Of a stretch of 64,000 nt of DNA, positions 6,218-16,237 are shown one piece after another; positions within the stretch are counted from its first letter, which is position 1; each line of letters starts with the position of its first letter. The notes beneath the pieces are model-generated. The model was not told the origin of the DNA and searched no databases. It worked only from the letters and a program-made list of their open reading frames with translations. The stretch spans positions 8,942-72,941 of the forward strand of contig DUUJ01000040.1 in assembly GCA_012841635.1 (NCBI GenBank). The letters are read 5' to 3'. This DNA is from Clostridiales bacterium (GTDB lineage Bacteria > Bacillota > Clostridia > Oscillospirales > CAG-272). Position numbers and translations under genes: made by a program.

Positions 6218-7681
6218 TCAGAATATCCCTATCTCAGTGTATGCGATCTCAGCATCCCCGCCGGATTTGAACTCAACGCGGTATCTGTCGGCGGGTTTGA
6301 CCGGCGCTTTGTAATAGACGGCGCCTTCGGGACCGTATTTGATAACCCGCTCCGGCTCGGCGGAGGAATACCCGTTTTTTTCAAATGCGGCGGCGACTCC
6401 GTTTACGCTGACGGCGACGCTTTCGGGAGAACCGGCTGCAAATCCTATGATCACCTCGGCGGAGGCGTTTTCTCTCGCTTTGCCTATGTCGATATCGAGG
6501 ACGGCGCTCTCGCCTGCCGAAAGTCTGACAGGGAGCGGCTTACGGCGCCCGTGACCTCTCGGTGCGATATCTTGGAAAGTCAGCACATGGCGGTATGGGC
6601 GCTTCATCGCCGCTTCAAGGCTTCCCGCGGTCTTGTTGACTTCGTCCATATCTGTGGAAACAGAATCGGGATTTATGAAATAATTGAAAAGATACATCGA
6701 ATCGGCGCCGCGGGAGAGATATCTGACAGCGTATCCTCTTGCGACGGCGGGGGTGCAATACGTCTCGTCAGACGGACGGCAGCAAAGGATCTCAATTCCG
6801 GCGGCAAGCTCGACGCCTTTCACTTTGGATTTCCATTCTTCAGAAGGCATATCGCTGTCGGAAGTTTCCCAGCGCGGGGTGTAACAAACGAGGTCGACAA
6901 GTTCCTCTTTTACCCAATTAACGATGTCAAAGCCGTATATCAGGTTCTGGGCGATATCCGGCATAAGCCGGAAGCCGAGGCGAATTTTGTGTCCCAACTG
7001 CTTCCCTCTTTCTTCAGTCATTTCTCTGACGGCGCGGACGAAACCGGTCATTATCTCAACTCTGTCGGGGCAGTTTTCGATGTCGAAGCAGGTTATCTCC
7101 CTCTGGAAATCAAGTTCAAGTCCGTCGGGGTCGTAGCGCCAAAGCTGCTCTTTTATGTAATCGAGCATTTTTTGACGCACTTCGGGGACGGAGTAGTCGA
7201 AGCAATAGCGGAAGTAGCCGTATTTATCGCCGATTACCCAGCCTTTTTCCCGGGCTTCGTAAAAGAAATCCGAGCGCAGAAAGCTTGCCGGATCATCGGG
7301 TTCGTGGCAGTCGTTCATGCGGATGGTCAGCCAGCCGGAAAGTCCGATTTGGCGAAGACGGCGGAGCCAAACTTCATAGGGGTCTATCGAATATTCGGAG
7401 TTGAGCTTATATATTCCATTGTAAAGGTCTTTATAATCGACTTCAACGCCGTTTTCGATCTCCTGCTCGTATTTGTCGGCGTAATCGCTCCAGATCTCGC
7501 TTTTCGCTGCGGAATACTGGCAGAAGATGTTCAGCAGAACGTCGGTGATGAGTGTGTCTTTGTAGATATCGACGAAGGGATACAGCAGCTCCTCGCTGAC
7601 CTTTTCTTCTTCGGAGACGCGGTTCAGAAACGGCGTCACGACCGAATTGATGTCAATGTTGGTGTAAAATCTGCGTTTCAT
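6218..7681 (-). CDS. Glycoside-hydrolase-like TIM-barrel protein, paralogue B (family not identified)
   Basis: I take the start at the internal Met (MKRRFYTNIDI) because it has a GAGAGG RBS and matches the start of the upstream paralogue. MNDCHEPDD, GLELDFQRE and CYTPRWETSDSDMP blocks suggest a (beta/alpha)8 hydrolase-like fold with a C-terminal beta-sandwich. The function is a guess. Confidence 0.55.
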   Translation of the reverse strand: MKRRFYTNIDINSVVTPFLNRVSEEEKVSEELLYPFVDIYKDTLITDVLLNIFCQYSAAKSEIWSDYADKYEQEIENGVEVDYKDLYNGIYKLNSEYSIDPYEVWLRRLRQIGLSGWLTIRMNDCHEPDDPASFLRSDFFYEAREKGWVIGDKYGYFRYCFDYSVPEVRQKMLDYIKEQLWRYDPDGLELDFQREITCFDIENCPDRVEIMTGFVRAVREMTEERGKQLGHKIRLGFRLMPDIAQNLIYGFDIVNWVKEELVDLVCYTPRWETSDSDMPSEEWKSKVKGVELAAGIEILCCRPSDETYCTPAVARGYAVRYLSRGADSMYLFNYFINPDSVSTDMDEVNKTAGSLEAAMKRPYRHVLTFQDIAPRGHGRRKPLPVRLSAGESAVLDIDIGKARENASAEVIIGFAAGSPESVAVSVNGVAAAFEKNGYSSAEPERVIKYGPEGAVYYKAPVKPADRYRVEFKSGGDAEIAYTEIGIF

Positions 7682-7706
7682 GCGATTACCTCTCTTCATT
7701 ATGTTT

Positions 7707-9185
7707 TTATGCTTGATAAATTCCAATCTCTGCGTAGACAAGTTCGGCATCTGCGGCGGCTTTCAGCTCGACGCGGTATTTGTCGGCGGGTTTTACCGGC
7801 GCTCTGTAATAAACAGTTCCGTCGGGACCGTAATAAATTCGCCTGTCCGGTTCGGCGGACGGATATTCGGTTTCGGTGAAATCTGCCGCATCGCCGTTTG
7901 CGAAGACGGAGATGTTTTCCGGCGAGCCGGATGTAAAGCCTAATATCAGCTCGGCGGAGGCGTTATCTCTCGCTTTGCCGATGTCTATATCAAAGGCGGC
8001 GTTTTCTCCCGATTTAAGTTTTATCGGCAGCGGCTTCCATCGCCCGTAACCTCTCGGAGATATGTCCTGGAAAGTGACCGCATGGCGGTAGGGATGCTTA
8101 ATCGCTTCTTCAAGGCTGCCTGCCGTCTCATTGACCTGCTGTATATATTTTGCGCGCGAATCGATATTGCCGGGATCGATATAATAATTATACAGGTACA
8201 TCGAATCGGCGCCGCGGGAGAGGTATCTTACGGCGTATCCTCTTACGACGGCGGGGGTGCATCTCGTTTCGACCGACGGACGGCAGCAGAGAATCTCGAT
8301 GCCGGCGGCAAGCTCAACTCCCTTGACTTGTTCTTCCCATTCTTCCGACGGCATATCGCTGTCCGATGTTTCCCACCGCGGAGTGTAGCAGACGAGGTCG
8401 ACAAGTCCCTCTTTTGCCCAATTTACGATGTCAAAGCCGTATATCAGGTTTTGCTCAATATCCCGCATCAGCCGGACGCCGAGGCGGATTTTATGCCCTA
8501 ACTGCCGCCCTCTTTCTTCCGTCATTTCGCGGACGGAGCGGACGAAGTCGGTCATTATCTCTATCCTGTCGGGGCAGTTTTCGATGTCGAAGCAGGTTAT
8601 CTCCCTCTGGAAATCAAGTTCAAGTCCGTCGGGGTCGTAGCGCCAAAGCTGCTCTTTTATGTAGTCGAGCATTTTTTTCCGCACTTCGGGGACGGAGTAG
8701 TCGAAGCAATAGCGGAAGTAGCCGTATTTATCGCCTATCATCCAGCCTTTTTCCCGGGCTTCGTAAAAGAAATCCGAGCGCGCAAAGAAGGTCGTCTCAT
8801 CGGGGCTGTGGCAGTCGTTCATGCGGATCGAGAGCCAGCCGGAAAGTCCGATTTGACGAAGACGGCGAAGCCAGACATCAAAAGGATCTATCGAATATTC
8901 GGCGTTGAGCTTATAGATGCCCCTGTATAATTCCCTGTAATCGACTTCGACGCCGTTTTCGGTTTTCTGCTCGTATTTGTCGGCATAATCGTTCCATATT
9001 TCGCTTTTTGTCGCGGAATATTGACAGAAGTTATTCAGGAGAACATCGGTTATCAGGGTGTCTTTATAGATGTCAACGAAGGGATACAGAAGCTCTTCGC
9101 TTACATTCTCCTCTTCGGAGACGCGGTTCAAAAACGGTGTCGTGACCGTATCGATATCGATGTTGGTGTAGAATCTGCGTTTCAT
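7707..9185 (-). CDS. Glycoside-hydrolase-like TIM-barrel protein, paralogue A (family not identified)
   Basis: GGAGG RBS. Collinear with paralogue B over its whole length. The N-terminal ~330 aa are very similar and the C-terminal third is more diverged. Confidence 0.55.
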   Translation of the reverse strand: MKRRFYTNIDIDTVTTPFLNRVSEEENVSEELLYPFVDIYKDTLITDVLLNNFCQYSATKSEIWNDYADKYEQKTENGVEVDYRELYRGIYKLNAEYSIDPFDVWLRRLRQIGLSGWLSIRMNDCHSPDETTFFARSDFFYEAREKGWMIGDKYGYFRYCFDYSVPEVRKKMLDYIKEQLWRYDPDGLELDFQREITCFDIENCPDRIEIMTDFVRSVREMTEERGRQLGHKIRLGVRLMRDIEQNLIYGFDIVNWAKEGLVDLVCYTPRWETSDSDMPSEEWEEQVKGVELAAGIEILCCRPSVETRCTPAVVRGYAVRYLSRGADSMYLYNYYIDPGNIDSRAKYIQQVNETAGSLEEAIKHPYRHAVTFQDISPRGYGRWKPLPIKLKSGENAAFDIDIGKARDNASAELILGFTSGSPENISVFANGDAADFTETEYPSAEPDRRIYYGPDGTVYYRAPVKPADKYRVELKAAADAELVYAEIGIYQA

Positions 9186-9214
9186 GCGGTTACCTCCATT
9201 TTTAAATTAAAATA

Positions 9215-9243
9215 AGTATAGCACAGGCATTGCCGAATGTCAA
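9215..9243 (-). promoter_or_regulatory. Sigma-A-type promoter for the tandem GH-like genes
   Basis: On the minus strand: TTGACA (9243-9238), 17-nt spacer, TATACT (9220-9215); about 30 nt upstream of the 9185 start. Confidence 0.6.
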
Positions 9244-9302
9244 CATTATTCGGTATTCTGCACCAATCCGAAAATCTGACGTTTTTTGTGAATATCCGCA
9301 AT

Positions 9303-9347
9303 AACAAAAAGCCGGGGCGTCTCGGCTGATTTGAGATTATCCCCGGC
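9303..9347 (-). terminator. Probable terminator of the zinc-ribbon protein gene
   Basis: Read on the minus strand: GCCGGGG/CCCCGGC arms (9311-9317 / 9341-9347), or an inner AGCCG/CGGCT hairpin, followed by TTTTTGTTAT. Confidence 0.5.
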
Positions 9348-9419
9348 AAAGCGGCATTAAACTGCGATTTTTTCAAAAGGTAAAGTCACGGTCAAATATA
9401 TTGATATGGTTATACAAAT

Positions 9420-11783
9420 TCAGTTTACCTGCTTCCACTCGTAGACATAATTTGTACCCATAGATACTCCCATGTAGAATTTGGTGCGCAGCGCGATTCG
9501 GCTCCCCTCGCTGCCGGATCCGATTGTTGCCGTAAGCGTTTCGCTGTAAGAAGTCGGATTGCCGTTGACATCAAGGACAAAGTGATATTTGTTGTCTTCA
9601 TTAACAAACACCTTTGCCCCCCTTGTAACCGCACCGGGACCTAAATCCCACTCATCAAAATCCGCGCTTGCGGCACTGGAAAACGCAAGTTTAACCACAT
9701 CATTTTGCGTTGTGTTAAATGATAAATTCAATGAAACCGGTTCATCCGGGTAAATAATCTGCGGCATGCCGGAAAATACGGCTTGTACGCCCAATGTTCC
9801 TTTAAGTCCCTGGCCGTATGGATCATCTCCTTCATATGTCACGCTTGCGCTGTAAGAACCGCTTGAATATCCATGTCTTACAATATATGCCGGGTGCGCG
9901 TCCGAGGCTGCCCAATCCTCGGCATTCTCAAAGTCCAAAGTTTCGACCAGTACCCAGGCATAGGTCGGATCGTATTTATACGGCTCTTTGATATATCCCA
10001 TATCGCGCATATATTGCCAAAATCCGCTGTAATCTTTCTTTTCGCCCCAATATATCCATTGATCTATGGCTTTTACCAGTTCCTCATCCGAAATTGTTGC
10101 CGCAACATCTTTGTCCATAACCCCGAGTACTGTCGATTTCAGCTTATAAAGGCGAGCCAGGCGATCTCCTATGTTGAAATTACTCAGATTCTTTTCGATT
10201 CCGAAATAATCACGGTAATTGGAAGCTCCCAGCAAGTTCTGCTTTTTCAGTTCCGCAATAAAGAGTTCTTCTTTCCACTGTATGTTTGATATTTCGTAAT
10301 CGGATATTTTTCGTTCATCAAAATGACGTTTCAGATAGGTCATTGCGTTTGAAACGATACGATCTCTTTCCGACTGAGACAGATCGCTTTCTCTTTTGCC
10401 GTATTTTTCGCAATACCTTTTAACAACATTGATTTTCATCATGCGTTCGCCGCCGCCGAGAGTGGTGAATATGGCATCAAAATCACCTTCAAGTCCGTTG
10501 TCATATCCATATTTCCCCGCGGCATTGCCTATATAGACCTGATACGCTTTCTCGATCTCGTTTTGTGTCCACAAATTTATGCCGGTTTCCATGCTTTCCT
10601 TTACGAAAGTCAAAGCCGTATCGGCTAATGCGATTATAGGATCGGCGCCTCTGATCATGCTTGCAATCCCCTGCAGCGCTCCCTCGGTATCTCCTTCGTA
10701 AAGAGCCCCGGCAGCAGTGCTTAATCCTCCCGTTACATTTGCAAGAGACGCGAATTTGCCCGGATCTTTTTCCATAACCCTATAGAGGGCTCTGCCGGTA
10801 AATTCGATAAGCTGACCGCGAAAATCCTCCATCCCGGCTTGTCCCTGGCTGACTGCATTGGCCATGTTTGCAAGAGTGGAGATGGGGGACATATCGCCTG
10901 TATCCAGTTTTTCGCTTTCCAGATAGTTGATAACATCCAGCGCAAGCTGTGTTCTGAGTGAGCTGTTATTGACACCCATAGAGACAAACAGATCTTCATA
11001 CTGGCGCTGAAGAGAATCAGTCATATTTTTGGTTTGCTTTTGGCTTTCCCATTGAAGTGATGCGAAATTCTTTGCAAAGGTTCTTATCTGCTGGTCCTCA
11101 GACGGCCTGCCGAAGCCAAAAAAGCTGAAATGATAGATCTCGGCAGCAGCGGTGCCTTTTTTCAGATCCACATTGTCGGGGAAGAAATATTCCCAATTGC
11201 CGTCATAATATACGCCGAAGAACAACTCTTCTGCCGCAATGTCCTTTTGCAATTCTTCCGGGATCCGCAGTGTTATCTGAACAGCTCCGCCCAATCTCAC
11301 ATTCTCATTGTTTTCCATTGTAATTTCAACGGGCGTTCCGTATAATTCAAAATCCGAACTTTTGTATGCCTCGCTTTCGGATTCTGACAACACCCGCATA
11401 TACAGCCTGCCGTCTTCCAATGTGTTTGCCGGAATATCAAGCTGCCAGCCGGTTTTTTTCAGGTTTCCGACTTTATAACCGCGATCGGTTTTTATCGTCT
11501 GTTCCACAGCGGCGCCGTCATGATACGGGTCTTTCCCCCCGAACAACAGACGCAATAAAAACAGATTGCCGACAATCGATACCAATACAATGGCAGCCAC
11601 GGCAATTATGATCTTCATAGCCGGTTTATTCTTTTTTAAAGCAGCGGTCCTTGTATTGTTCGCAGCTCGCGGGGGTGAAGACGGTGCCTGACCGGAAGGC
11701 ACGGACGCTTTCGTGCCGCATACGGAGCAGAACTTAGCCTCCAGGTTCAGTCTGGCGCCGCATTTTTTGCAATGTTTATACAT
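9420..11783 (-). CDS. Large single-pass membrane protein with N-terminal zinc ribbon; extracytoplasmic domain of unknown function
   Basis: AGGAG RBS then ATG at 11783 (MYKHCKKCGARLNLEAKFCSVCG is a CxxC...CxxC zinc ribbon). TM helix IIIAVAAIVLVSIVGNLFLL. About 690 aa with no motif I recognise. Lower GC than the flanks. Confidence 0.7.
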   Translation of the reverse strand: MYKHCKKCGARLNLEAKFCSVCGTKASVPSGQAPSSPPRAANNTRTAALKKNKPAMKIIIAVAAIVLVSIVGNLFLLRLLFGGKDPYHDGAAVEQTIKTDRGYKVGNLKKTGWQLDIPANTLEDGRLYMRVLSESESEAYKSSDFELYGTPVEITMENNENVRLGGAVQITLRIPEELQKDIAAEELFFGVYYDGNWEYFFPDNVDLKKGTAAAEIYHFSFFGFGRPSEDQQIRTFAKNFASLQWESQKQTKNMTDSLQRQYEDLFVSMGVNNSSLRTQLALDVINYLESEKLDTGDMSPISTLANMANAVSQGQAGMEDFRGQLIEFTGRALYRVMEKDPGKFASLANVTGGLSTAAGALYEGDTEGALQGIASMIRGADPIIALADTALTFVKESMETGINLWTQNEIEKAYQVYIGNAAGKYGYDNGLEGDFDAIFTTLGGGERMMKINVVKRYCEKYGKRESDLSQSERDRIVSNAMTYLKRHFDERKISDYEISNIQWKEELFIAELKKQNLLGASNYRDYFGIEKNLSNFNIGDRLARLYKLKSTVLGVMDKDVAATISDEELVKAIDQWIYWGEKKDYSGFWQYMRDMGYIKEPYKYDPTYAWVLVETLDFENAEDWAASDAHPAYIVRHGYSSGSYSASVTYEGDDPYGQGLKGTLGVQAVFSGMPQIIYPDEPVSLNLSFNTTQNDVVKLAFSSAASADFDEWDLGPGAVTRGAKVFVNEDNKYHFVLDVNGNPTSYSETLTATIGSGSEGSRIALRTKFYMGVSMGTNYVYEWKQVN

Positions 11784-12291
11784 AATAAGTCTCCTCTTTG
11801 ATAAATCTGTAAATAAGTTAAAACCGCAACAAGGCATTCAAGTAATCTTGTTTATCAGGGCGGCGCATAAGCCGTTAAATCAGCTTATATCACATATCAA
11901 CCCGCGAGCAAAAAACGGACAATTTGTCAAGAACGACAAAACCGGAAAACAAGATTCTGCAAAGCAAAACAATGTCCGGAGTCCTTGACGAGGCAGACTT
12001 TTTTGATGGTTCGGCCGGTCATACAACATTATTTAATATCATCGAAGATATAGGAAGAGTTCAACACCTCCTTTTGCTTTCTTATAACTATAACCGATAT
12101 TTCCGCAGATTATGACTTTTCAGCCGCTTCGGAGCTTATAATTATTATATCACATTAACAATATAATGTAAATATCTCATATAAATTTCATATCTGCATA
12201 ATTTACAAATATCGGTTGAAATTTTGCCGCATATGAGTACAATAATTATATACGCTTAAAAAACACACTTCCTGCGTTTTTGGTAGATAGT

Positions 12292-13166: not shown

Positions 13167-13194
13167 GCCCCGGCGATCCCGGGGTTGTTTTTTT
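13167..13194 (+). terminator. Rho-independent terminator after the LRR gene
   Basis: CCCCGG (13168-13173), 5-nt loop, CCGGGG (13179-13184), then TTGTTTTTTT running into the gatC ATG. Confidence 0.7.
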
Positions 13195-13195
13195 A

Positions 13196-13486
13196 ATGCA
13201 AATGGACATAAAGAAAATCGCGCGCAGCCTGCGCATACGCCTGAGCGATGCCGAAATCGCCGAATTTGAAAAAGACTTCGCCCGGCTTGATGAACTATCC
13301 GGGATTTTTGCCGATCTTCCTTCGTATATCTCGAATATACCGGAAAATCCCGACTCCTTCAGCGGCGCCGCTCTCCGGCCGGATGAACCGAATGACGGAC
13401 AGACCATGGGCAGAGACGAGCTTCTGGCTAACGCTCCGAAGCTGAGTAAAGATAAGACTATGGCCGCCGTGCCGAGGACAGTGTGA
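13196..13486 (+). CDS. gatC: Asp/Glu-tRNA amidotransferase subunit C
   Basis: 96 aa. IRLSDAEIAEFEKDFARL and the C-terminal LRPDEP...ELLANAP pattern are typical of GatC. Lies immediately upstream of gatA. The start could also be the second ATG at 13202. Confidence 0.8.
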   Translation: MQMDIKKIARSLRIRLSDAEIAEFEKDFARLDELSGIFADLPSYISNIPENPDSFSGAALRPDEPNDGQTMGRDELLANAPKLSKDKTMAAVPRTV

Positions 13487-13487
13487 A

Positions 13488-14831
13488 ATGGATATCACGA
13501 GAATGACGGCGGCGGCGCTTTCAAAAGAGCTTGCATCCGGAAGGCTCAGCTCTGTCGAGCTTGTTTCGGCTGAGCTGCAAAGAATAGCCGACAAAAACGG
13601 AGAGACAAACGCCTTTATAACCGTCTGCGCCGACGAGTCGCTTAAAGCCGCGGGAGAAGCGGACAGACGCCGCGCCGACGGCCGGGTTCTTTCCTATCTT
13701 GACGGAATCCCGATCGCCGTAAGTGATAACATAATGACTAAAGGCGTAAAAACCACCTGCGCGTCAAAGATGCTGCAGGATTTCATCCCGCCGTATGACG
13801 CGGCTGCTGTCGAGAAGCTTAAATCGGCGGGGCTTGTTATAATCGGAAAGACGAACCTTGACGAATTCGCGATGGGAAGTTCGTCCGAAGCTGCGGCAGC
13901 GGCTGCTGATTTTATGACGCCGCTGGCTTTGGGCTCCGACACCGGCGGCTCTTTGCGGCAGTCTGCCGGTTTATGCGGAGTTTACGGCTTTCGCCCGACT
14001 TACGGCGCGGTTAGCCGGTACGGTCTTGCCGCCGCTGCTTCCTCGATGGACACCGTCGGCGTCATGGCGCGGTCGGTAAGAGACATCCGTCTGCTGTGCG
14101 ATATAATTTACGGCGGAGACATCCGGGATGCATCTTCAATAAACATTAAGCTGACGGAAGGCGGAAAGCCGGATTTTTCATCAATGAGCTTTGCTCTGCC
14201 GGATGAACTTTTTGCGAACGCCGGGAAGAATGCAATTTCTGCCGCGGAAGAAACGGCGGCGAAGCTGGCGGCGCTTGGAATGACGAGAAAAACTTTGTGT
14301 CTGTCTTCTTTGAAATACGCGCCTGCCGCATATATAATAATCTCCTGCGCCGAAGCGGCGTCGAATCTCGCCCGCTTCGACGGGGTGGGTTACGGCTATC
14401 GTTCCGAAGAATATGACGGTATAAACGAGCTTTTCGAAAACACCCGCGGGGAGGGCTTCGGGCAGGAAGTCAAACAGCGGATTTTGCTCGGAGGCTGCGC
14501 GCTTTCGGCGGATTTCAAGGAGAAGTGGTTTTTTAAGGCGAATGCTGCCCGGGCGCTTATAAAAGCCGAGCTTGACGAGGCTTTGTCCGACATAGATATT
14601 ATCGTATCTCCGACTTCGGCGAATCCCGCGGGGAATAAAACTTCCGGGAATATCTTCGACACGGATATAGCGCTGATTCCGGCGCCGCTTGCCGGACTTC
14701 CCGCCCTTTCGATTCCGGCGGGGCTGTGCGGCGGGATTCCGACGGGCATTCAACTGACTTCCGCCAGGCGCCGCGACGGACTTGTTCTCAATATCGCCGA
14801 GCGGCTTTTCGAAACGGAGGCGGGAAGATGA
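13488..14831 (+). CDS. gatA: GatA-like amidotransferase subunit A with a degenerate amidase-signature active site
   Basis: GatA blocks are present (TTCASKML, GKTNLDEFAMGSS, GSDTGGSLRQ, SNLARFDGVGYGYR, GEGFGQEVKQRI). The catalytic Lys position reads Ser (AVSDNI) and the GGSSGGS block is missing. 447 aa versus the usual ~485. Confidence 0.8.
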   Translation: MDITRMTAAALSKELASGRLSSVELVSAELQRIADKNGETNAFITVCADESLKAAGEADRRRADGRVLSYLDGIPIAVSDNIMTKGVKTTCASKMLQDFIPPYDAAAVEKLKSAGLVIIGKTNLDEFAMGSSSEAAAAAADFMTPLALGSDTGGSLRQSAGLCGVYGFRPTYGAVSRYGLAAAASSMDTVGVMARSVRDIRLLCDIIYGGDIRDASSINIKLTEGGKPDFSSMSFALPDELFANAGKNAISAAEETAAKLAALGMTRKTLCLSSLKYAPAAYIIISCAEAASNLARFDGVGYGYRSEEYDGINELFENTRGEGFGQEVKQRILLGGCALSADFKEKWFFKANAARALIKAELDEALSDIDIIVSPTSANPAGNKTSGNIFDTDIALIPAPLAGLPALSIPAGLCGGIPTGIQLTSARRRDGLVLNIAERLFETEAGR

Positions 14832-16237
14832 AAAACGGATATGTTCCGGTTATCGGGCTTGAGACCCACGTTGAGCTGTCGACAAAAACCAAGATATTCT
14901 GCTCCTGCGAAAACCGGTTCGGAGCCGAGCCGAACACTCTTTGCTGTCCCGTTTGCATGGGGATGCCGGGGACGCTGCCGGAACTTAATGAAAAGGCGGT
15001 CGAATACGCCGTCCGCGCCGGGCTTGCTCTCGGCTGCAAAGTCGCAAACGTAAGCGGCTTTGACCGCAAAAACTACTTTTACCCCGACCTGCCGAAAGGA
15101 TATCAGATAACCCAGCATTTTACTCCGATATGCTCGGAAGGCAGCCTTGAAACGCCCGACGGAGCCGTCCGAATCGCGCGTCTTCATCTTGAGGAGGACG
15201 CGGGAAAGCTGTTTCACGACCGAGAAGATGCGACGCTTATCGACTTCAACCGCTGCGGCGCGCCGCTTATCGAGATAGTCACATACCCGGATATCAAATC
15301 TCCCTCGCAGGCGGCGGATTATATTTCGGCGCTTCGCGGGGTCATGCTTTTCTGCCGCGTCTCCGATGTCAAAATGAACGAAGGATCGCTCAGGATCGAC
15401 GCGAATATATCCCTTCACCGCCACGGCGAACCGCTCGGCACGAAAGTCGAGATAAAGAACATTAATTCGGTTAAATACATGGAAAAGGCGCTTGAATACG
15501 AGATTTGGCGCCAGACCGAATTGCTGGAAAGCGGCGGCGTTGTCGTAACCGAGACCCGGCGCTTTGATGAAAAGACCGGCGCAACCGAGCCGATGCGGAC
15601 AAAGGAAAGCGCGGAAGATTACGGTTATTTTCCCGATCCGGACCTTGCCGCGGTTATCTTGAGCGATGAATACATCGGGCGGCTGCGGGCTTCGCTGCCA
15701 CGGATGCCGGAAGAGCTGAAAGCCGGGTTTATATCGGATTTCATGCTTTCGGATGAGGCTGCGTCAAGGCTTGTCGATTCTCCGGATACGGCGGAACTGT
15801 TTTTAAAATCGGCTGCCGGACTTGACCTTGCCGCCGCCGGGCTTGCGGCGAATCTTATAAATTCCTACCCCGCAGAGGCGGTTTTCGTCCGTCCGGAAAG
15901 ACTCAGCCGGCTCGCCGAAATGCTCGGTTCCGAAGAAATCACTTTTTCCGTCGCAAAGGCTCTGCTTTCGGAACTTGCCGCTTCCGATTTCGATCCCGCC
16001 GAAGCGGCGAAGGAGCGGAGTCTTACCGCGATACGCGGAGAGGAGCTGAAAGAGCTTGCAAAAGAAGCCGTCAAAGGCAGCCCGAAGGCTGTCAAGGCTT
16101 ATCTCGGCGGAAAAAAGACCGCCGTCATGGCGGTAGTCGGCGCCGTTATGAAAGCGAGCGGCGGGCGCGCCGACGCTGAAAAAGCCCGCGAGCTGATTAT
16201 CGGAATAATCGAAAAAATCGGAGAAACCGAGGGTTAA
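14828..16237 (+). CDS. gatB: Asp/Glu-tRNA amidotransferase subunit B
   Basis: ATGA overlap with the gatA stop. VIGLETHVEL, FDRKNYFYPDLPKGYQITQ, LHLEEDAGK, MNEGSLRIDANISL, ETRRFDE, YFPDPDL, and a C-terminal YqeY-like tail. The track's 14726 start is an upstream extension inside gatA. Confidence 0.92.
   Translation: MKNGYVPVIGLETHVELSTKTKIFCSCENRFGAEPNTLCCPVCMGMPGTLPELNEKAVEYAVRAGLALGCKVANVSGFDRKNYFYPDLPKGYQITQHFTPICSEGSLETPDGAVRIARLHLEEDAGKLFHDREDATLIDFNRCGAPLIEIVTYPDIKSPSQAADYISALRGVMLFCRVSDVKMNEGSLRIDANISLHRHGEPLGTKVEIKNINSVKYMEKALEYEIWRQTELLESGGVVVTETRRFDEKTGATEPMRTKESAEDYGYFPDPDLAAVILSDEYIGRLRASLPRMPEELKAGFISDFMLSDEAASRLVDSPDTAELFLKSAAGLDLAAAGLAANLINSYPAEAVFVRPERLSRLAEMLGSEEITFSVAKALLSELAASDFDPAEAAKERSLTAIRGEELKELAKEAVKGSPKAVKAYLGGKKTAVMAVVGAVMKASGGRADAEKARELIIGIIEKIGETEG

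Follow-up and report, generated by a model that had tools for sequence, protein, structure and literature searches.

The 64-kb window examined here (the whole analyzed stretch of Clostridiales contig DUUJ01000040.1) carries three tightly packed open reading frames (ORFs) on its forward strand at 13196-16237, in the order gatC-gatA-gatB. The gatA product has a degenerate amidase-signature active site, and we put at roughly one in two the probability that the operon specifies a functional tRNA-dependent amidotransferase whose GatA has turned into a pseudo-glutaminase scaffold and whose GatB is fed with ammonia. By its standard definition, GatCAB depends on glutamine and links GatA to GatB through a 30 Å tunnel; most bacteria cannot do without it, and it is regarded as a drug target. 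In the operon described here, catalytic residues of GatA are lost or drifting, while the predicted fold, the frame, and the partner genes persist under purifying selection, which is the profile of a pseudoenzyme retained in a complex. The finding is a variant within a known enzyme system and not a new kind of system, and full-text searches of the literature turned up no account of a GatCAB whose GatA is degenerate by nature.

The ORF at 13488-14831, which the original prediction had read as GatA, matches the Pfam Amidase family PF01425 with 336.2 bits (cut-off, 27; E value, 4.5e-100) in two stretches split at the deletion described below, and it matches the GatA chains of solved structures at 2e-97, again in two stretches. 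Against the NCBIfam gatA equivalog model (TIGR00132), it scores 407.9 bits, below the cut-off of 481.1, and the current annotation of the sister-strain protein in the Prokaryotic Genome Annotation Pipeline is “amidase family protein.” The replacement of the catalytic Lys by Ser is confirmed. Alignment of residues 33 to 136 of this protein (here, the focal GatA) to the S. aureus GatA that serves as the reference for residue numbering (2df4_A; yeast GatA is numbered as in PMC4027206) is free of gaps and places Ser79 on Lys79, and in 3h0l and 3al0 it is the IAVKDNI Lys that is aligned with Ser79. Lys occupies this column in 99% of 114 canonical GatAs. Within the focal clade, the site holds Ser in the lineages of the window, L025, and L007 and Gly (GGC) in the lineage of L001.

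Relative to every canonical GatA, 23 residues are missing, with the gap at residues ~131 to 135 (DNA, ~13878-13892). Canonical GatA has one G-S-S in FAMGSS and another in GGSSGGS, at a distance of exactly 23 residues, which is the register of the deletion, and HMMER places residues 130 to 132 (GSS) of the focal GatA both on S. aureus residues 130 to 132 and on S. aureus G153-S154-S155. The deletion joins two GSS motifs, and the absence of the GGSSGGSAAAVA block and of the cis-Ser therefore depends on the alignment. Thus, the missing segment stands as predicted, but the loss of the cis-Ser is not clear-cut, since Ser131 (13878-13880) lies 24 residues ahead of the nucleophile Ser155 and may hold the cis-Ser position. 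The same spacing of 24 separates the cis-Ser and the nucleophile of yeast GatA, S130 and S154 (PMC4027206). The motif around Ser131, M-G-S-S-S-E, is degenerate relative to GGSSGGS (GG to SE), and within the clade residues 131, 133, 134, and 135 vary (S/N, S/A/T/N, E/G, and A/S, respectively), with Asn at the cis-Ser site in the P0003 lineage. The AAAVAA helix is kept. The unambiguous losses are the Lys, the 23 residues including an invariant N-P, the GG after SS, and the Pro of RQP. Judged from these alignments, one triad residue is certainly missing and a second would be present by spacing, in a degenerate and variable motif. Replication slippage on long direct DNA repeats is not supported as the origin of the deletion; in relatives, the codons of the G-S-S motifs differ in their DNA sequence, and the protein register alone matches.

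The nucleophile motif GSDTGGS is kept, as predicted. Its Ser155 is aligned to S. aureus Ser178, the named nucleophile of that GatA (PMC2330236), and the motif is followed by RQS where canonical GatA has an invariant RQP. P0243 and P0247 have Ile at the otherwise invariant Thr of the motif (Thr152). The alignments show no variation at Arg331 and Asp393; the roles of their yeast counterparts, R334 and D418, in glutamine contact have been described (PMC4027206). The wider extent of the change was audited over 103 columns that are at least 95% conserved across the 114 canonical GatAs. Deviations number 22 or 23 per clade member, with 76 columns kept in all four, whereas the canonical GatAs average 1.5 deviations, with a maximum of 10.

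An AlphaFold2 model of the focal GatA, built from a 60-sequence alignment, has a mean pLDDT (predicted local distance difference test) of 89.6 and a predicted template modeling (TM) score of 0.91. The pLDDT is 77 to 81 around the junction and 53 at a second small deletion at residues 381 to 390, where the model is least confident. Relative to canonical GatA, residues 376 to 390 (about 14613-14657) show two more small deletions, of 3 and 2 residues, just before the Asp393 loop. Foldseek compares the model with the GatA chains of solved GatCAB complexes at TM scores of 0.93 to 0.95, and PDB 6c62 (AtzE) is among the structural neighbors. The focal GatA is thus predicted to fold like GatA still.

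By its sequence, GatB is intact in both the kinase/transamidase site and the tRNA-binding tail, in line with the original prediction, which had called GatC intact too. It scores 535.4 bits on the NCBIfam equivalog model NF004012 (cut-off, 338), matches the Pfam families GatB_N (7.6e-112) and GatB_Yqey (2.3e-21), and is aligned from end to end, as a single stretch, to 3h0l_B, 3al0_B, and 2df4_B. The motifs E12/H14, HLEEDAGK, PLIEIV, and RIDANIS are conserved, and 126 of 143 highly conserved columns are kept, the changes being mostly conservative. Residues 25 to 43 of this GatB contain a C-x-C...CC-x-x-C motif as in the Aquifex and Thermotoga enzymes, unlike S. aureus GatB.

The same allele had been proposed as something to look for in related genomes, and the Lys loss together with the 23-residue deletion is carried by four diverged lineages (82 to 94% identity) in NCBI, JGI, ENA, and Logan assemblies. 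One lineage consists of copies identical or 99.8% identical to the focal GatA (HHX53709.1; 23 contigs, in ENA, NCBI, JGI, and Logan). The 94% form (L025 to L027) comes from the NCBI metagenome-assembled genome (MAG) GCA_050953205.1, on a 454-kb contig, from JGI 3300060680, and from Logan runs; the 85% form (P0002) is found on 27 contigs, and the 82% form is P0003. The cluster accessions are HHX53709.1, NLZ36062.1, NLB16664.1, and MGI6744225.1. In a search of 5.8 billion proteins, the next relative outside the clade is a canonical GatA at only 45% identity. Synteny is conserved from an LRR_5 lipoprotein gene through gatC, gatA, gatB, GHL10/Amidase_3, and UDG onward. The lone GTDB species representative with the allele, Clostridiales sp. 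AS10tlH2TH_327, is a bin recovered from biogas reactors that were thermophilic and fed with hydrogen (PMC7038595 supplement).

There is no frameshift or stop in the well-covered gatA copies of the four lineages, at synonymous distances (dS) of up to 0.46. The sole disrupted copy (L008, 2836-4162; ERZ2647912) is split into ORFs of 105 and 319 amino acids by a frameshift after TKGVK, at a coverage of 0.92x, and this frameshift is probably a sequencing error rather than the mark of a pseudogene. An assembly or sequencing artifact, or a simple pseudogene, for which this split copy would speak, is excluded: identical or 99.8% identical copies recur in independent ENA, NCBI, JGI, and Logan assemblies, on 23 contigs for HHX53709.1, and there are further clade members (NLZ36062.1 and MGI6744225.1), with the frame intact and a ratio of nonsynonymous to synonymous substitution rates (dN/dS) well below 1.

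Selection on the operon was gauged with a Nei-Gojobori implementation of dN/dS, with the canonical gatA-gatB operon of related Clostridia (L031 to L033) as the reference. The focal gatA has a dN/dS of 0.25 at a dS of 0.34 to 0.46 (P = 1.4e-17 versus omega = 1) and of 0.36 in the closest pair, at a dS of 0.08 (P = 1.8e-4 versus omega = 1). The values are 0.09 to 0.15 for the focal gatB, 0.17 to 0.29 for gatC, and 0.01 to 0.24 for eight neighboring genes, compared with 0.05 to 0.06 for gatA and 0.04 to 0.05 for gatB in the control operon; the focal gatA is thus at about five times the dN/dS of its canonical control. The closest pair differs by 28 amino acid changes in GatA and 11 in GatB, and the ratio of nonsynonymous to synonymous differences is higher in gatA than in gatB (closest pair, P = 0.007; next pair, P = 0.077). 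Therefore, gatA is under purifying selection that is relaxed relative to its own gatB and to the canonical control. Together with the four lineages and the confident predicted fold, this bears out the view of an in-frame, maintained gene that is not broken. Overall, the GatA protein appears to be kept while its catalytic chemistry is not. A global acceleration of the rate of GatA was considered and rejected, since its identity to a canonical relative is 43%, compared with 42.7% between canonical GatAs at the same GatB distance.

Within gatA, the signature region (residues 66 to 200) has the lowest or near-lowest dN/dS, 0.19 to 0.22. This would suit a GatA that is still an amidase acting through Ser131 and Ser155, either without a Lys or with a substitute base, and perhaps with low activity or a changed substrate; a hypomorph of this kind could be tolerated as adaptive mistranslation. 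The exact cis-Ser spacing of Ser131 and the retention of Ser155, Arg331, and Asp393 point in the same direction, and mycobacteria are reported to tolerate partial loss-of-function gatA alleles (PMC8406222). However, such residual catalysis is very unlikely because the Lys, cis-Ser, and Thr sites vary within the clade (Ser or Gly, Asn in one lineage, and Thr to Ile, respectively) in a way that catalytic residues do not. Furthermore, the invariant N-P segment is deleted, RQP has become RQS, and parallel lineages described below lose the nucleophile too at a similar dN/dS. We know of no active amidase-signature enzyme without the Lys.

The main rival to the scaffold reading is the slow decay of a dispensable operon, in which AsnRS and GlnRS would charge their tRNAs directly, Asn would be made otherwise, and gatA would be the first gene to fail. 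Direct charging by AsnRS and GlnRS occurs in many Clostridia. All three gat genes are above the control dN/dS (0.09 to 0.36 versus 0.04 to 0.06), the gatA-versus-gatB difference is marginal in one comparison (P = 0.077), a terminator abuts gatC with no promoter seen, and the genome-wide content of aminoacyl-tRNA synthetases lies beyond the 64 kb in view. We nevertheless consider decay unlikely. The frames are intact in well-covered copies of four lineages at a dS of up to 0.46, and the one split copy has a coverage of only 0.92x; the dN/dS of gatB lies inside the range of the neighboring housekeeping genes, with the catalytic motifs of GatB intact; and gene order and translational coupling are conserved, with the dN/dS of gatA far below 1.

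The layout of the operon (Table 1) is conserved in several respects. The gatC stop codon is followed by one base and then by the gatA ATG (13484-13490), and the predicted translational coupling of gatA and gatB is present, the same 4-nt ATGA overlap occurring also in L001 to L007 and L025 to L027. The GatC ORF scores 20.2 bits on the Pfam GatC model (gathering score, 23) and gave no match in the NCBIfam scan; its size, position, and C-terminal motifs agree with GatC, the JGI and NCBI annotations call members of its cluster GatC, and the gene is conserved in L001, L007, and L025. The hairpin ahead of it has its 3' end one base before the gatC ATG, and its stem is invariant in L025, L001, and L007, where the loop alone varies. 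No promoter-like site was seen in the 40-nt gap between the upstream LRR_5 lipoprotein gene and gatC, and transcription of gatCAB may come from read-through or from a promoter inside the LRR_5 gene.

Table 1. Features of the gatCAB operon and of the active site of its GatA, in window coordinates (aa, amino acids; Sa, S. aureus GatA)
Feature	Coordinates	Strand	Description
Terminator-like hairpin	13167..13195	+	GCCCCGG-CGATC-CCGGGGT plus T7 run; 7-bp stem, 6 GC pairs
gatC	13196..13486	+	96 aa, divergent; C-terminal GatC features LRPDEP, LLANAPK, and VPRTV kept
gatA	13488..14831	+	447 aa; GatA homologue with degenerate amidase-signature active site
Ser79 codon AGT	13722..13724	+	Catalytic Lys position (Sa Lys79; yeast K52)
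Deletion junction M129-G-S-S-S-E-A-A-A-A-A-A140	13872..13907	+	Placed by alignments to canonical GatA
GSDTGGS with nucleophile Ser155 (13950-13952)	13932..13952	+	Ser155 aligned to Sa Ser178
Arg331	14478..14480	+	Retained; counterpart of the glutamine-carboxylate-binding Arg (Sa R358; yeast R334)
Asp393	14664..14666	+	Retained; counterpart of the glutamine-contacting Asp (yeast D418)
gatA stop/gatB start ATGA overlap	14828..14831	+	Translational coupling
gatB	14828..16237	+	469 aa, intact; GatB_N cradle, helical and YqeY tail

The rest of the window is an ordinary Firmicute chromosome, with genes for HprK, ProRS, FtsH, TilS, DnaB, L9, MgtE, AckA, WalRK-like proteins, and MurA. The 64 kb contain no asnS, glnS, asnA/B, or second gatA and no tRNA genes, and an Rfam scan of the whole window gave zero matches, a T-box upstream of gatC included. 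The flanks of the operon in the relatives, checked over 10 kb on either side, likewise lack asnS, glnS, asnA/B, and a second gatA. These negatives bear on the possibility that a canonical gatA elsewhere supplies the glutaminase to the same GatB-GatC, the operon copy being redundant or a regulatory paralogue. Clostridia commonly have several amidase or gatA paralogues, the analysis covered 64 kb of the genome, and a degenerate GatA of Oscillospiraceae (see below) travels with GatC but without GatB. Nevertheless, no second gatA appears in the window or around the relatives' operons, and a cotranslated dead GatA would compete with a live one, which would make its maintenance, coupling, and purifying selection hard to explain. 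The 45% identity of the nearest GatA outside the clade speaks against a recent duplicate. We thus regard this explanation as rather improbable.

Upstream of the operon, on the reverse strand at 6218-11837, lie two or three consecutive ORFs of ~490 to 510 amino acids without a Pfam or NCBIfam match, accompanied by an ORF of 787 to 805 amino acids with a weak zinc-ribbon match. This group is conserved in relatives (L001, 4124-8610; L025, 1384-6950). In the control Clostridia, an AspRS-GatC fusion ORF of 696 to 699 amino acids (L031, 1-1546; L032, 1-1545; L033, 1-1536) lies directly upstream of the canonical gatA-gatB. Its domains are an anticodon-binding domain, a class II core, GAD, and GatC, and fusions of this type already have an NCBIfam model (NF009460).

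Degenerate GatAs also occur in other lineages, which makes the finding broader than the original prediction. A fragment spanning the deletion junction was searched against 1.84 billion representatives, and among the top 150 matches just two, the focal clade and P0358, aligned in one stretch with no difference in length. The P0358 family (“clade 2”; P0358 and P0414 to P0435) comprises at least 23 clusters of 377 to 399 amino acids, labeled “amidase family protein [Oscillospiraceae bacterium].” Its triad is wholly lost (Lys to Asp or Gln; nucleophile to Ala, Glu, Gly, or Leu), with a 22-residue deletion at the same place, two further in-frame deletions, and RQP changed to RQS, and its dN/dS is 0.17 to 0.27 (12 intact members). 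Clade 2 genes are always downstream of a canonical GatC gene, and no gatB or AspRS gene was found within 6 kb of them. P0464 belongs to this Oscillospiraceae family as well, and its loci are L034, L035, and L038 to L058. In L035 and L057, an unrelated 257-amino-acid ORF lies between gatC and the degenerate gatA; it was considered as a remnant GatB and rejected, having neither a family match nor similarity to GatB. Sister sequences from Oscillospiraceae include full-length or nearly full-length GatAs in apparently intermediate states (P0436, P0437, P0439, P0440, and P0462): Lys to Asp alone, Lys to Thr combined with Gly at the nucleophile position, 3-residue deletions removing the GSS of GGSSGGS, and a 439-amino-acid form that combines Lys to Gln with a 22-residue deletion.

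In Defluviitaleaceae, a degenerate GatA (P0470) is encoded in an operon of aspS-gatC-gatA-gatB order (L036, 7932-12710; L037, 156-5024). This protein of 419 amino acids keeps the Lys, reads VSDTGGDIRQP where Asp replaces the nucleophile Ser, and lacks 20 residues at the same loop; the GatB of its operon is intact (630 bits on the equivalog model). P0470 and clade 2 are 40 to 42% identical to the focal GatA, and a neighbor-joining distance tree does not group them with the focal clade and therefore gives at least three origins of degenerate GatA. It is tentatively suggested, at somewhat less than even odds, that natural GatCABs run on free ammonia with a GatA that is structural only, and that this switch was made repeatedly in anaerobic Clostridia of digesters and gut-like habitats, each time with excision of the same loop, of 20 to 23 residues. 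Excision of the active-site loop may open the ammonia tunnel to solvent. A separate match, P0265, is a eukaryote-like predicted protein of 2292 amino acids and low complexity with ten partial, repeated GatA stretches, and it looks like an assembly or gene-model artifact.

The clade 2 pairs also raise the possibility that the focal GatA and GatC were recruited to a function outside tRNA amidation, as in AtzE-AtzG, with GatB a mere neighbor. In Oscillospiraceae, GatC and a triad-less GatA are kept under purifying selection without an adjacent GatB, and AtzE (PDB 6c62) is among the structural neighbors of the focal model. However, the ATGA overlap of gatA and gatB is present in every focal lineage, and the YqeY tail and kinase site of GatB are under purifying selection. 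Recruitment thus fits the Oscillospiraceae pairs better than the gatB-coupled focal operon, for which we hold it to be highly improbable.

The original prediction had offered three explanations (a scaffold for an ammonia-using GatB, a decaying paralogue, and a repurposed GatB-centered enzyme), of which the first fits best. In this scheme, the focal GatA would be made together with GatC and GatB through the conserved gene order and translational coupling, and it would be retained because GatB requires a GatA-GatC partner for assembly. Hydrolysis of glutamine would have been lost, with the general-base Lys gone, a 23-residue active-site segment deleted, and other catalytic positions drifting; the predicted glutaminase-dead state is supported as probable on the basis of this loss and drift of residues. 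GatB would amidate Asp-tRNA(Asn) and/or Glu-tRNA(Gln) with free cellular ammonia, which may enter via the vacated pocket of GatA and then the ammonia tunnel. Thermophilic biogas reactors, of the kind that yielded the GTDB representative, are generally ammonia rich. By analogy, the scaffold role and the use of ammonia as the in vivo donor would follow known behavior of these enzymes: GatC helps GatA to fold and to bind GatB (PMC2330236), on which the proposed need of GatB for the focal GatA rests, and such amidotransferases transamidate with 20 mM NH4Cl once the glutaminase step is bypassed (PMC4027206). In yeast GatFAB, a destabilized GatA site raised the ammonia-driven activity (PMC4027206).

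Several observations weigh against this scheme. The spacing of Ser131 and the residues Ser155, Arg331, and Asp393 are all kept, which makes residual or altered amidase chemistry conceivable from the sequence. A second gatA, asnS, glnS, or asnA/asnB may exist outside the window. The strong terminator abuts gatC without a visible promoter, so expression of the operon is only presumed. The dN/dS values of gatB and gatC are two to three times more relaxed than those of the control operon, which would also suit a partly redundant operon. Finally, no gatB lies within 6 kb of the genes of clade 2, the largest parallel family, and a degenerate GatA need not, therefore, scaffold GatB.

If the scaffold reading is true, the glutaminase half of GatCAB would be dispensable in vivo in some habitats, the operon would offer a natural system for studying the entry of ammonia into the tunnel, and an amidase-signature pseudoenzyme would join the short list of bacterial pseudoenzymes. 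There is also a consequence for annotation. Proteins of the focal GatA type score below the gatA equivalog cut-off and are labeled “amidase family protein,” and pathway reconstructions for MAGs that carry them would thus mistake the tRNA-dependent Asn/Gln route for an incomplete one.

Compared with canonical GatCAB, the focal operon has the same three genes in the same order, a GatB that matches the equivalog model, and a GatA that is modeled at TM scores of 0.93 to 0.95 and keeps its nucleophile Ser together with the Arg and Asp that contact glutamine. It differs in the replaced Lys, the deletion of 23 residues including N-P, the degenerate GGSSGGS, the change of RQP to RQS, the failure of GatA to pass TIGR00132, and a gatA dN/dS about five times higher. 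AtzE has amidase activity and an intact triad, and it does not pair with a GatB. The “vestigial” AtzE-AtzG complex (PDB 6c62) is likewise a GatA-GatC descendant outside the tRNA role, which is relevant to the Oscillospiraceae pairs of GatC and degenerate GatA, whereas the site of the focal GatA is degenerate and its gene is coupled to gatB. Yeast mitochondrial GatFAB with a truncated GatF N-terminal domain has a compromised glutaminase site and shows NH4Cl-dependent transamidation above that of the wild type (PMC4027206), and it provides the experimental precedent for an enzyme that is supplied with ammonia while its A subunit does not work. However, that enzyme was engineered and assayed in vitro at 20 mM NH4Cl with the GatA triad intact, whereas the focal degeneration is natural, fixed, and located in GatA. 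Among NAD synthetases, some members are also reported to use free ammonia because they lack a working glutaminase module (PMC3376133), but there the glutaminase domain of NadE is simply absent, whereas the focal GatA is retained, folded, and selected. P0470 and clade 2 are parallels too. They have independent origins and differ from the focal clade in detail, P0470 keeping the Lys and losing the nucleophile and clade 2 having no triad and no adjacent gatB, and they share with it the loss of triad residues, a deletion of 20 to 22 residues at the same loop, intact frames, and a GatC gene upstream.

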